The notes beneath the pieces were generated by a model that saw only the letters and a program-made list of their open reading frames with translations, had not been told where the DNA came from and did no database searches. Source: an uncultured Gammaproteobacteria bacterium (GTDB taxonomy: Bacteria; Patescibacteriota; Microgenomatia; 2-02-FULL-39-11). From it: DNA of 60,777 bases. Location: NCBI GenBank assembly GCA_964446235.1, contig CAYUNW010000001.1, positions 103,837 to 164,613 of the forward strand. The letters are read 5' to 3'. Both the position numbers and the translations under genes were made by a program. Within the stretch, counting starts at the first letter, position 1. Each line of letters begins with the position of its first letter. Shown here one piece after another: positions 1 through 60,141 of the stretch.

Positions 1-1608
1 TGCCTGCAAAAGATTTATAACTTTCTCAGATCTGATACCAAAACCCTGGCAAAGTTTTTGGAAATTAGGATTTTTCAGTCTAGTTTCAGCATAATTTCCC
101 TTATAAAACAACTCCTGCCACTGTCTGACCATACCTAGAAAGTTATTATTCAACAAAGCGATTTTTACATCGACATTTTCCTGTACAATAGTAGCCAATT
201 CCTGCAAAGTCATTTGAATACCTCCATCACCTATTACTATCCAAACTTCTCTTTTCGGATCAGCTACTTTTGCACCTATTCCGGCAGGCAAAGCAAATCC
301 CATTGTTCCTAATCCACCTGATGTTATATGTGAATTATATTTATTATATTCATAGTATCTTGCAGCATACATCTGATTTTGTCCTACATCAGCCACAACT
401 GTCGCCTTACCATCAGTTTCCTTTGAAATTAATCTTATTACTTGAGCAGATTTCAGTTTTTTTGAATGTAATTCCGGAAGCCAAACCTTTTCTTTTTCCT
501 CCAATTTCCATTTCTTAAATTCAGTTAACCATTGAAAATGCTTTTTTTTATAAATTAAAGGTAATAACTGAATCATAATTTCTTTTGCATCAGCCACGAT
601 TCCCAAGTAAGGTTTAATGTTTTTGCCGATTTCAGAAGGATCTATATCAATATGTATGATTTTTGCCTGCCGGGCATATTTATTAACAGCGCTAGTTACT
701 CTGTCAGAAAACCTCATACCTAAAACCAGAATCACATCAGCCTCGTTTGTGGCTCTATTGGCTGCTACATTACCATGCATACCGGGCATGCCCATAAACA
801 ATCTGTGATTTGAAGGTATAGCTGATAATCCTAAATGTGTGAGAATTATTGGTGCATCCATTTTTTCAGCAACTTTTAAAAGATTTTTACCGTCTCCAGA
901 CAACATAACTCCATGTCCGGCTAAAATTAACGGTTTATGTGCTCCATTTAGTAAATCTGCTACTTTCTTCAATTCATCTTTTGAAGGTTTCGTTTTAATT
1001 TCTTCTGAATTACGATAACCTAATTTTTTTGGGTATTTAAAAATCGCAGAACCTGTTTGTGCGTCTTTGGTAATATCAATCAAAACCGGACCAGGCCGAC
1101 CGCTTGATGCAATATGAAATGCTTCTCTGATAGTATAGGCAATATCTTGTGTGCAAGTTACTTGATAATTACGCTTGGTAATGGGTGCAGTAATACCCAC
1201 CACATCCGCTTCCTGAAAAGCATCTCTTCCCAAATACATCGAAGGCACCTGTCCGGTGATACAAACCATAGGGATAGAATCCATCATGGCATCTGCCAAA
1301 CCTGTCACCAAATTGGTCGCACCTGGTCCAGAAGTAGCAAAACAAACACCAGGTCTTCCTGTAATCCAAGCATATCCCTCTGCAGCATGCGCTGCTCCCT
1401 GCTCGTGACGGACTAAAATATGTCTTAATTGAGGAAATTTATAGATAGCATCATAAATTGGGATATTTGCCCCACCAGGATATCCAAAAATCACGCTTAT
1501 CCCTTCGCGACATAAACATTCGCAGAGGATATCTGCTCCTTGAACTTTTTCCCCTTCTTTCAGTTTACTGGTAAATTTATTGATTTTTGATTGTTTAGTT
1601 AGTTTCAT
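1..1608 (-). CDS. ilvB: Acetolactate synthase large subunit (partial; 3' end runs off the window)
   Basis: Not in the ORF track because no stop lies in the window. Hand translation from ATG 1608 gives MKLTKQ...GADILCECL...VIFGYPGGA...[14 protein letters not shown]...[13 protein letters not shown]...[10 protein letters not shown]...[12 protein letters not shown]...[12 protein letters not shown]. The start overlaps the ilvD TGA (ATGA). Confidence 0.96.
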
Positions 1609-3365
1609 AAGGTATTATCCATAACAGCACCGTAATTTGCGCTCAAAACATGCTGGCTGTAACGGCCAAGCCAACCGTTTTTAACTTTTGATTCAAATAC
1701 CGGCAGTTTTTTCAAACGATCATTCATTTCTTTTAGACGGATTTTTAAATTTACTAATTTTTTTGTAGTATCAATCTCTATCAAATCTCCATCATAAATA
1801 ACAGCTATCGGACCACCTACAGCTGCCTCCGGAGAAATATGCCCCACACAAAGCCCTCGAGTACCACCTGAAAATCTCCCGTCTGTAATTAATGCCGCTT
1901 TTATCCCCAAACCTTTGATTGCTGAAGTTGGTGAAAGCATCTCCTGCATCCCCGGCCCTCCACGCGGACCTTCATACCTTATCACTACCACATCACCATC
2001 CTTAATTTTCTTTTTTAATATTGCATCTAAAGCCTCTTCTTGAGAGTTGTAACATTTAGCCCGACCGGTAAAACTCATCATATCTTTATCCACTCCCGCC
2101 GTCTTCACTACGGCTCCATCCGGAGCCAAATTGCCAAAAAGGACTGTTAAACCGCCTTTTTGGGAAAAAGCATTTTTCCCGAAGCGAATAACATCATTAT
2201 CAGGATCTGGAGCTTCTTTAATATAATCGCCAAGTTTCCCTATGCAAGTCTTGGCGCCAGTATCAAGTAGAGATTTACTGTGCCTGACAACAGCTTTCAA
2301 AATTGCAGCAACTCCCCCTACTCGATGAACATCTTCTATATGAACTTCCGGACGAGATGGTGAAACTCTACAGACATTGGGAGTTTGATCTGAGATTTCT
2401 GCGATACGTTCTAATCTATAGGGAATTCCAGCCTCATAAGCCAAAGCCAGTGTATGCAAAACCGTATTGGTTGATCCACCCATGGCTAAATCCAAACAAA
2501 AAGCGTTGTCAATAGAACTTTTTTTAACAATATCTTTCGGTCTAACTTTATTTTTGACTAATTTGACTATCGTCTCAGCAGCTTTTTGGGTCATAGCCAG
2601 TCTTTGAGGATTGACTTTCCAGATACCCTTCTTTTTATCAACCCATATAGCTGCAGGAACTGTCCCGTTTCCGGGTAAAGCCAATCCTATAGCTTCTGCT
2701 AAACAATTCATCGAATTTGCCGTAAACATCCCAGCGCAACTTCCGCAGGTCTGACAAGCACCTTGGGCAAGTTTCATCAAGCTATTTTCGCTTATCTTAC
2801 CGGCTACATATTGACCAACTCCTTCAAATACGGATATCAGATCTGTATTGTTTTGCCCGGCCAACATTGGTCCGCCACTTAAATAAAGCGCCGGAATATT
2901 CAGTCTCACCATAGCATTAAGCATACCCGGTACAATCTTGTCACAGTTACCAATCCCAATCCAAGCATCCGGTGGATGAGCCCCTATTATCGTTTCTATC
3001 TGATCGGTAATCAATTCTCTTGATGGAAGAGAATATTTCATACCAAAATGTCCCATGGCTATCCCATCATCTACCGCTCCACCGATATTGCAATACCAAA
3101 CATTTACCTTAAGTTTTTTCAGTTCTTCCACCAGCTTTGCTCCTAAAACTTGAAGATGAATATGTCCAGGTATATGAGTAGTATAAGAATTAACGACTGT
3201 AATGAATGGCTTTTTTCTATCAGATATTTTTTTTATTACTCCGGCAGCTATCATCAAAGATGCATTGGGTATCATATGATAACCTTCTGTGACAATCCTG
3301 CTGCCTTTTTTTTGAATTTGAGCAATACCTTGATTGATTGCTTGTCTTTTTCTGATCTTTTTCAT
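1605..3365 (-). CDS. ilvD: Dihydroxy-acid dehydratase
   Basis: [61 protein letters not shown] and GHISPEA motifs. Confidence 0.97.
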
Positions 3366-36606: not shown

Positions 36607-36720
36607 TTATCCTTGTCTTTGTTTATGTTTCGGATTCTCACAAATTATAAATACTTTACCTCTACGGACAACTACCTTACATTTATTACATCTTTTTTTT
36701 ACTGATGAATGAATTTTCAT
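36607..36720 (-). CDS. rpmJ: 50S ribosomal protein L36 (Zn-binding form), missed by the ORF track
   Basis: Hand translation [37 protein letters not shown]. Confidence 0.97.
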
Positions 36721-47348: not shown

Positions 47349-47984
47349 TTATACACTTTTAATTATCAATAATGAATTTCTTCCGCCAGGTGCTAAACCT
47401 TTGATATTTAGTATTTCATTTCTTGAATCTATTGATATAACTTTTAGATTTTTAATTGTAACTTGATCATTTCCCATTCTACCTGCCATTCTTTTACCTT
47501 TATATACTCTTCCAGGAGTAGTAGTTTGCCCTATAGATCCTGGACTTCTTTCTCTGTCTGACTGACCATGAGTTCTCGGACCTCCTTTAAAATGATGTCT
47601 TTTTACACCACCCTGAAAACCCTTACCTTTTGAAATCCCAGTCACTTGAACCAAATCACCTTCCTGGAATATTTTATTAATATCTATTTTTTCGCCAATT
47701 TTTATATCAGAATCCATTTCCTCCATAAACTTAATTTCTTTGATATATCGTGGAGGATTTTTCTCAAGTCCGGTTTTTTTTAGAAAACCTAAAATACTTT
47801 TTTTTGTATTTTTTGACTTTTTTACCCCTATTCCCAATTGATAAGCACGGTAACCGTCTTTTTCAGATTCTTTTATATTTACCAAATATTGTGGACCTAC
47901 TTTAATTCGAGTTATCGGTACTCTAATTTCCTCTTTGGTAAAAATATTCGTTTGATCTAATTTAATTCCTAATATTGCTTTCAT
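47349..47984 (-). CDS. rplC: 50S ribosomal protein L3
   Basis: SKGKGFQG..KR..F, HG....R.PGSIG, KG.RM.G.MG. Confidence 0.97.
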   Translation of the reverse strand: MKAILGIKLDQTNIFTKEEIRVPITRIKVGPQYLVNIKESEKDGYRAYQLGIGVKKSKNTKKSILGFLKKTGLEKNPPRYIKEIKFMEEMDSDIKIGEKIDINKIFQEGDLVQVTGISKGKGFQGGVKRHHFKGGPRTHGQSDRERSPGSIGQTTTPGRVYKGKRMAGRMGNDQVTIKNLKVISIDSRNEILNIKGLAPGGRNSLLIIKSV

Positions 47985-47987
47985 CTT

Positions 47988-48033
47988 AAAAAAAATCAGC
48001 CCCGGATAGGGGCTAATTACTCCATCCAGGTTA
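47988..48033 (-). promoter_or_regulatory. Candidate terminator/antiterminator leader of the rplC operon
   Basis: UUAGCCCC-UAUCC-GGGGCUGA followed by U8. Alternative helix CCUGGAUGG/CUAUCCGGG. Confidence 0.65.
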
Positions 48034-48116
48034 TTTAAAAATATTATAATTTGTACATTATTCTCATGTACGGCTCTTTATATTATACAAAAATCGTCTT
48101 TTTTTCAATAATTAAT

Positions 48117-48425
48117 TTACATTTTTATCTCAATATCAACTCCTGCAGGTAATTCCAAATGCATTAAACTGTCAATTGTTCTATCTGTTGGTTCTAGAAT
48201 ATCTATTAATCTTTTATGAATTTTTATCATAAAAGCTTCTCTACTATCCTTATCTGTAAAAGGTGATCTTTGCACACTGTAATGATGGCGATCTGTAGGT
48301 AATGGAATTGGCCCAATAACTCTAGCTCCCGTTCTTACAGCGGTATCCAAGATTTTTTGGCACGAATCATCAATTATTCTGCCATCATATGCTTTTAAAC
48401 GTACTCTAATTCTGCCTTTTGGCAT
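48117..48425 (-). CDS. rpsJ: 30S ribosomal protein S10
   Basis: IR.RLKAYD...[24 protein letters not shown]. Confidence 0.97.
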
Positions 48426-48464
48426 TTTATTTTCTTATAAAATAATATTGAGCAGGTCTTTAAT

Positions 48465-60100: not shown

Positions 60101-60141
60101 AAGAAAAAAAGCGTACAGAGACCGTACGCCTCTCGCTTTTT
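60101..60141 (-). terminator. Leader terminator upstream of rpoB, with an alternative fold
   Basis: GCGUAC-GGUCUCU-GUACGC followed by U7. Alternative pairing AAAAAGCG-AGAG with CUCU-(GUA)-CGCUUUUU. Confidence 0.7.

Follow-up and report, generated by a model that had tools for sequence, protein, structure and literature searches.

The window, by which we mean the whole stretch of 60,777 nt analysed here, comes from a genome of the Gottesmanbacteria, which belong to the Microgenomates within the Candidate Phyla Radiation (CPR). Based on NCBIfam models, the gene order is rpoB, rpoC, rpsL, rpsG, fusA, tuf, rpsJ, a gap of 132 nt, and then rplC, rplD and rplW, all on the minus strand. The region between rpsJ and rplC contains the following features:

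48117-48425, minus strand: rpsJ (uS10; NCBIfam 30S S10, 139.9 bits), the upstream neighbour of the leader
47985-48116, minus strand: the rpsJ-rplC gap of 132 nt
48108-48103, minus strand: -35-like hexamer TTGAAA, 15 nt upstream of TATAAT and 17 nt upstream of TAATAT (48085-48080)
48087-48082, minus strand: predicted -10 hexamer TATAAT of an internal rplC promoter, read from the sequence and an alignment of the eight closest leaders
48071-48053, minus strand: 5'-proximal hairpin GUACAU (48071-48066), 7-nt loop GAGAAUA, AUGUAC (48058-48053); -5.9 kcal/mol
48067-48044, minus strand: possible 7-codon leader ORF MRIMYKL (speculative; stop codon 48046-48044), ending 13 nt upstream of X
48030-48020, minus strand: X, the purine-rich antiterminator strand CCUGGAUGG(AG), based on shuffle test, permutations, folding and covariation
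48018-47994, minus strand: full intrinsic terminator hairpin AAUUAGCCCC / UAUCC / GGGGCUGAUU, based on structure and profile R1
48014-47998, minus strand: core of this terminator, AGCCCC (48014-48009), loop UAUCC (48008-48004), GGGGCU (48003-47998), read from the sequence
47995-47988, minus strand: U8 tract, followed by the 3 nt AAG and the rplC AUG at 47984
47349-47984, minus strand: rplC (uL3; L3_bact, 231 bits, alignment from residue 4), which heads a tightly packed r-protein cluster

The original prediction had called the 132-nt gap unusual and had placed in it a TATAAT, a small GUACAU/AUGUAC hairpin, a GC-rich terminator with a U8 ending 3 nt before the rplC AUG, and an alternative 9-bp helix; all of these elements were found again at these positions. 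The whole gap folds better than its shuffled versions (z = -3.1). Upstream of it, tuf and rpsJ are separated by a spacer of only 39 nt (48426-48464) with no terminator-like site or hairpin, in agreement with the view that rpsJ travels with tuf. From rplC down to ~32.9 kb, the gaps between genes measure at most 22 nt, except for stretches holding small genes, and no strong terminator follows the leader across this packed cluster. It is plausible that, as was also proposed, the leader governs everything from rplC onward. A promoter-like site at 36671 lies inside a small gene reading as rpmJ (L36) and was discarded as a chance match. On the plus strand, a divergent gene begins at ~60281 and runs off the end of the window, with an N-terminus, MPATIKSEFALALNQVATERGIDP, which we take to look like that of NusA.

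Our comparison drew on relatives retrieved with the uS10 protein from Candidatus Gottesmanbacteria and other Microgenomates (80 loci from genomes and 80 from metagenomes). Both rpsJ and rplC were found in 113 unique loci from Gottesman-, Levy-, Curtiss- and Shapirobacteria and others. In these loci, rpsJ and rplC are always separated by at least 60 nt, with a median spacer of 179 nt. A GC hairpin with a perfect stem and a U-run ending at most 60 nt before rplC is present in 73 of them and the arrangement TTGnnn-16..18-TAnnnT in 68. Where both occur, the promoter lies upstream of the terminator without exception (48/48 loci). The layout of promoter, leader, terminator and rplC is thus a feature of the lineage and not a peculiarity of the window. 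Two Saccharibacteria loci with short spacers of 62 and 69 nt lack it. Furthermore, genes are inserted between rpsJ and rplC in 24 of the 113 loci, among them L008, L018, L024, L038, L043-L045, L095, L102 and L103, with spacers of 465-2109 nt. In L008, L018, L024 and L095, the leader and terminator stand directly before rplC and not after rpsJ.

Judged from its sequence, the hairpin in front of rplC has the make-up of an intrinsic terminator, with a stem of ten pairs, five of them G-C, a loop of 5 nt and a U8 tract. The core can be extended by UU/GA to the 8 bp that had been described at first or by AAUU/GAUU to 10 bp. No other terminator-like site in 14 kb is as good, and the gene strand of the whole 60.8-kb window has just two further strong terminators. 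It is also the first strong one on the minus strand after position 60106. We infer that transcription would terminate here in vivo. Moreover, since no promoter can fit into the 3 nt between terminator and rplC, all transcription of rplC must pass this hairpin.

No Shine-Dalgarno sequence is present between the U-run and the rplC AUG, and U8 may therefore double as an A/U-rich translation enhancer. Another U8 tract, at 52920-52913 (minus strand), is located 7 nt before the rpsL start codon and has no GC hairpin in front of it, which suggests that U-runs at start codons may also act in translation initiation in this organism. Taken to its end, such a function would make the hairpin and U-run a translation-initiation structure for rplC rather than a transcription terminator in vivo, either as a U-rich enhancer or through a hairpin that brings GGAG (48023-48020) to a distance of ~10 nt from the AUG, with the pairing of X to the terminator apex modulating translation. 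The missing Shine-Dalgarno sequence, the U8 shared with rpsL, the GGAGA used by tuf and the position of GGAG 1 nt 5' of the hairpin base are all compatible with this. However, a GC stem with a U-run of at least six is a canonical intrinsic terminator and is conserved in the above 73 of 113 relatives, the distances between purine tract and AUG are inconsistent in the closest relatives, and one group of relatives (type A, described below) carries a separate GGGAA after the terminator. We consider a translational role in place of termination highly improbable. Its variant of a split Shine-Dalgarno, with GGAG brought to the AUG by the hairpin, was rejected, the spacing not being conserved in relatives.

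The TATAAT of the putative internal promoter is not significant alone, with 61 copies on the minus strand (31% GC). Together with an upstream element, as TTGnnn-N15-18-TATAAT, it is found at just seven sites of this strand across the 60.8 kb, others of which stand directly in front of rpsL and between fusA and tuf. When the eight closest leaders are aligned, the -10 has four invariant columns (A, A, A, T) and its remaining two positions are conserved to at least 70%, while the flanks are variable. Relatives carry TTGCAA or TTGAGT exactly 17 nt upstream of their -10 (TATAAT or TATACT); TTGCAA is found at exactly this distance in three of the eight closest leaders, and all type A relatives have TTGnnn-17-TATACT. 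The conserved -10 and the TTG-17 layout of the relatives argue for the initial reading of 48087-48082 as a candidate internal promoter, and we infer that this promoter fires. The 15-nt spacing between -35 and TATAAT in the window is suboptimal and weak, and its promoter, though likely, would be weaker than those predicted in the relatives.

Promoter-like and terminator-like elements were also observed elsewhere on the minus strand of the window. A second leader of the promoter-then-terminator kind lies at 60182-60104, upstream of rpoB (ATG 60068). It has the promoter TTGACA(60182-60177)-17-TAAAAT(60159-60154) and, 38 nt before rpoB, the terminator GCGUAC/GGUCUCU/GUACGC (60129-60111) with a U-run. 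Prefix folding of this leader gave a competing hairpin, formed between the loop and the purines immediately 5' of the stem; the shuffle test of its upstream complementarity was not significant. The fusA-tuf gap contains, at 49770-49722, TTGTTT-17-TATAAT and, ~8 nt later, a small hairpin CCCAA/UUGGG with U6, followed by an A/U-rich leader of ~70 nt and a GGAGA Shine-Dalgarno sequence before tuf. Based on this promoter-like site, tuf-rpsJ probably has its own promoter, and GGAGA indicates that the organism uses Shine-Dalgarno sequences for some genes. Finally, in the region 3560-3366, TTGACA-17-TATAAA is followed by a possible hydrophobic ORF of 26 codons (MNSLFPSIIISIIVLISGQRFAWKKA) and by a bidirectional terminator, AACCUCUC/A7/GAGAGGUU (3412-3390), which lies 25 nt before the next gene (1605-3365).

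In the rplC leader, the terminator hairpin has a competitor. The strand X pairs through CCUGGAUGG (48030-48022) with CUAUCCGGG (48009-48001) in a helix of 9 bp, three of which are G.U. Its partner is the terminator apex, which comprises the final C of the 5' arm, the entire loop and the three G with which the 3' arm begins. Since this helix extends into both arms of the terminator, the two structures are mutually exclusive, as had been predicted. A pseudoknot between X and the loop was rejected, as the loop of only 5 nt would be fully paired and the helix enters both arms. For the window, pairing of the terminator with the 32 nt upstream of it yields -15.7 kcal/mol (z = -4.0), and none of 200 shuffles was as good. 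Significant complementarity between X and terminator (p <= 0.05) was found in 30 of 42 leaders of the Gottesman group and in 28 of 43 unique leaders of other Microgenomates. Moreover, each leader's own X and terminator pair better than partners from different lineages, with a summed energy that was reached by none of 10,000 permutations.

Covariation among the relatives points in the same direction. We aligned 36 X-terminator modules with MAFFT (alignment A2) and followed ten antiterminator pairs, of which eight display double changes. Paired cells amount to 75.9%, compared to 68.7 +/- 1.2 after shuffling, and the covariation score is 0.279, compared to 0.183 in shuffled alignments (reached in 0 of 500 shuffles) and to at most 0.097 with a slid partner. 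A compensatory change from CUCGG/CCGAG to CUUGG/CCAAG occurred twice independently (L004 and L022), and further compensations are CUCAAGG/CCUUGAG in L029 and UCUCGCAAC/GUUGUGAGA in L013. The alternative helix of the original prediction, for which conservation and covariation across Microgenomates were the decisive properties, thus displays both. The terminator register is shifted by one column between leader types, and RNAalifold consequently found no consensus pairs in the X-terminator module. A profile built from this module in 34 relatives, with the window left out (R1), is therefore a sequence-only model; it gave a single match on both strands of the 60.8 kb, at 48026-47991 (19 bits, E = 1.2e-4).

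Folding of successively longer prefixes, starting from ~48075, gave the 5' hairpin together with the antiterminator until 47998 is reached (-19.7 kcal/mol). Not until GAUU is added does the terminator take over as the minimum-energy fold (-21.8 kcal/mol), and the antiterminator state then lies ~2 kcal/mol above it. In these calculations, two nearly isoenergetic states and a kinetic head start of the antiterminator would have the look of a conditional switch. In three relatives (L001, L082 and L137), the antiterminator is the minimum-energy fold at full length, which would fit constitutive read-through there. Of all parts of the leader, the predicted antiterminator is the best supported.

The leaders before rplC fall into several types. 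Those of type A (L004-L011, L013, L014, L017-L022, L029, L035 and L085-L099) share a strongly conserved and previously undescribed motif, GAGAUACUyUGGUAUACU, followed by a UUGAUAUGAC hairpin (GAUAUGA), by CCAAAAGUCUCGGAUGAG and by GACCUCAACCGAGGUC with a U-run. Their helix P1, which sequesters part of X, covaries: position 12 is GC in 12 leaders, GU in 6, AU in 3, UA in 2 and CG in 1. The 5' strand of this outer helix falls within the internal promoter, between its -35 and -10, and overlaps spacer and -10; consequently only read-through RNA from rpsJ can form P1. Type B, to which the window belongs together with L001-L003, L082-L084 and L137, has kept only promoter, X and terminator. In type C (L015, L055, L095 and L024), TATAAT is followed by cUACAUGUUAGUAAGCCCUAAACUCACUAAC, CGGAUGUAGGGAA and the terminator, and the conserved hairpin loop AAGCCCUAAAC can pair with UAGGG of X as an anti-antiterminator; L095 has a GC-rich insertion within this hairpin. 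Other Microgenomates, including Levy-, Curtiss- and Shapirobacteria and further loci, carry different leader modules before rplC (e.g., L023-L034, L033/L039/L056/L105, L119/L145/L148/L149, L123 and L142-L160). A AAGCCUAA hairpin among these duplicates the terminator arms in a 1:2 / 3:4 versus 2:3 layout. Short ORFs such as MEVIKA, MEVILAT and M..EVFLAT contain a perfect Shine-Dalgarno-like AUGGAGGUGAU, which is invariably read in frame as Met-Glu-Val or ...Glu-Val.... Moreover, ATGCCCAAA is found within or beside the promoter, and Curtiss-type leaders carry GGGACACCUGAAAACAUCUAAGGAGUCCUGCUUUUUU.

Between the -10 and X, the eight closest leaders share no conserved sequence and their individual folds differ, so that promoter, X and terminator are the only conserved parts among the window's closest relatives. 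The small GUACAU/AUGUAC hairpin is present in the window at -5.9 kcal/mol, as noted above, and its sequence is not kept in relatives, although a CAUG near the transcript start recurs. An anti-antiterminator complementary to X was sought upstream of X in the window's group and was not significant in what is an insensitive test owing to the long search region. Likewise, leader motifs gave only short, chance-level matches (AAAGCGUAA at 23S 1088 and UUGAUAGGCC at 2832) in a crude check for rRNA mimicry that used E. coli 16S and 23S rRNA as reference and not the organism's own.

As the closest relatives share no conserved leader sequence between promoter and X, r-protein synthesis is unlikely to be controlled by a metabolite riboswitch with, e.g., an alarmone or nucleotide as ligand. 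The terminator/antiterminator architecture is that of a riboswitch expression platform. Yet the window's group has no conserved aptamer-like core, no Rfam riboswitch matched at E values up to 10, and leader modules differ between sister lineages, so that we give this reading hardly any credence. The initial description as a riboswitch-like terminator/antiterminator leader can thus be kept for its second half, based on complementarity and covariation. The implied ligand-binding aptamer finds no counterpart among the conserved elements.

The recurring AUG near the 5' end of the leaders suggests another possibility, namely a translation-coupled attenuation that senses ribosome availability. A ribosome on a short 5' ORF, or at AUG-GAG-UAA in X, would cover X or its competitor. 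In the window, the first AUG (48067-48065) lies inside the GUACAU hairpin. Almost every leader has an AUG 8-20 nt past the -10, types B and C share a conserved CAUG and other Microgenomates a conserved AUGGAGGU, and within the window's group a stop codon lies 0-13 nt upstream of X. Furthermore, five non-Gottesman leaders have an upstream AUG and a GGAGGU that is always in frame as Glu-Val, and their ORFs end inside or beside X (peptides MINRTEVFLAT, MEVILAT and MEVIKA). However, leader ORFs have a median length of 8 codons both in the real frame and in a +2 out-of-frame control, and no peptide is conserved within the window's group. No Shine-Dalgarno sequence precedes the leader AUG, and an AUG is entirely absent from the comparable promoter-terminator leader of rpoB. 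Moreover, translation would be predicted to switch the leader on in certain lineages but off in others. On balance, we regard coupling to translation as quite unlikely.

From its sequence, the rpsJ-rplC spacer appears to be a transcription unit boundary that combines a promoter and an attenuator, and the leader probably throttles transcription of the large r-protein operon. In the mechanism we favour, a sigma-70-type promoter (TTGAAA ... TATAAT, 48108-48082) would start a leader of ~90 nt near 48075. X (48030-48020) would pair with the nascent terminator apex (48009-48001) before the 3' arm is complete, and with this antiterminator as default RNA polymerase would run into rplC and the packed r-protein genes. 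If X or the apex were occupied, the slightly more stable terminator (48018-47994 with U8) would form and transcription would stop 3 nt before the rplC AUG. The same hairpin would also stop transcripts arriving from the upstream rpoB...tuf-rpsJ genes. We take the most likely effector to be a trans-acting protein that would be made in proportion to surplus ribosome components and would favour the terminator, resulting in negative feedback. By the precedent of the E. coli S10 leader, uL4 or another r-protein encoded in the operon might play this part. That the leader is a genuine conditional attenuator appears fairly probable to us, whereas for the complete proposal, a factor-regulated attenuator whose effector is a trans-acting protein, our confidence is slightly short of even. 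An r-protein as effector, with uL4 as the first candidate by analogy, is a tentative suggestion and rather unlikely, and the response to uL4 or uL3 suggested at first is likewise no more than an analogy. The quite different leader modules of sister lineages count against this explanation, since they would be unexpected if one conserved r-protein site were mimicked. In addition, neither an anti-antiterminator nor a sensor is visible in the RNA of the window. Among sequencing runs, the window was found in one DNA run only and its relative L088 from Hainich in no RNA run.

Without any effector, the hairpin could end the rpoB...tuf-rpsJ transcripts constitutively, and the antiterminator would tune its efficiency or let promoter-born RNA escape. 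Such a factor-independent design would fix the ratio of EF-Tu and uS10 to the downstream r-proteins, with no signal sensed. Several observations fit this view: the hairpin is the first strong terminator on the minus strand after position 60106, the window has no sensor domain or anti-antiterminator, and in some relatives the antiterminator is the minimum-energy fold. In type A, moreover, only read-through RNA would form P1 and terminate, which promoter-born RNA could not do. A terminator selective for transcript origin is genuinely supported in type A. The window offers no such support: there, upstream-born and promoter-born transcripts share X and terminator and no helix discriminates between them. 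Furthermore, a plain terminator upstream of the promoter would suffice for a constitutive boundary and would not need a conserved, co-evolving alternative helix, and nearly isoenergetic states with conserved loop sequences are typical of regulated switches. We consider the constitutive reading unlikely.

A broader idea is that the rplC leaders of Microgenomates are self-contained, origin- or ribosome-sensing attenuators and not mimics of r-protein binding sites, for which we see only a small chance. If it were true, a single hairpin would, in the origin-sensing form of type A, terminate tuf-rpsJ RNA and pass promoter-born RNA, whereas in the ribosome-sensing form a short 5' ORF or GGAGGU over the switch would let free ribosomes set r-protein transcription. 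The window's version would then be a pared-down member of the family.

The conditional attenuator that we favour resembles several known systems. At the gathering score, no Rfam 15 family matches the window or 20 relatives, and permissive searches of the gap (E up to 10) and of a type A leader (E up to 5) found no r-leader or riboswitch. No paper describing this leader was found, and none of the S10-cluster leaders in the literature came from the CPR. In line with its initial description as a new leader, it is thus new to Rfam, r-leaders included, and to the literature searched. The E. coli S10 leader acts by uL4-mediated, NusA-dependent transcription attenuation and by translational control. 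Like the rplC leader, it consists of a promoter, a leader of ~100-170 nt and an intrinsic terminator just before the first cistron that is gated. The rplC leader would likewise gate a long r-protein operon, and in both the terminator apex is functionally constrained. However, the E. coli leader lies upstream of rpsJ, whereas the leader described here lies between rpsJ and rplC, with rpsJ fused to the tuf unit, and Rfam revealed no match in sequence or structure. Membership in the E. coli S10 leader family was rejected on both position and sequence. According to the work of Zengel and Lindahl, the E. coli mechanism reportedly uses no antiterminator helix, in contrast to the co-varying antiterminator of the rplC leader.

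Leaders of S10 clusters have been described in Gammaproteobacteria, Firmicutes, Peptostreptococcaceae and Archaeoglobi. Like the rplC leader, the Firmicutes S10 r-leader, the Peptostreptococcaceae rpsJ motif and the Archaeoglobi L4 r-leader candidate are cis-regulatory RNAs before the S10 cluster (PMC7247131, PMC11109978), and the last of these is also located directly upstream of rplC-rplD-rplW-rplB. However, they come from other phyla and have other motifs, none of which matches the window or its relatives in Rfam, whether at its thresholds or at E values up to 10. With the trp, pyr, T-box and riboswitch platforms, the rplC leader shares mutually exclusive helices of similar stability and an antiterminator that would fold first, and types A and C have, like classical attenuators, a third helix that captures the antiterminator strand. 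In contrast to these, no aptamer, specifier or convincing leader peptide can be recognised in the window. Furthermore, its antiterminator targets the terminator apex, whereas that of classical attenuators targets only the 5' arm.

Overall, regulation of r-protein synthesis is known in detail only for few model phyla, and the r-protein leaders of E. coli are mostly confined to Gammaproteobacteria. Members of the CPR have tiny genomes and unusual ribosomes, and we know of no description of r-protein regulation in this radiation. The rplC leader represents a conserved and covariation-supported candidate attenuator at a non-canonical position, after rpsJ, and new RNA families might be defined from the several lineage-specific leader modules. 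Both sigma-70-like promoters and intrinsic termination appear to be readable in these genomes. With its ~90 nt, the leader may provide a template for studying how uncultivated bacteria balance EF-Tu and uS10 against the rest of the ribosome.
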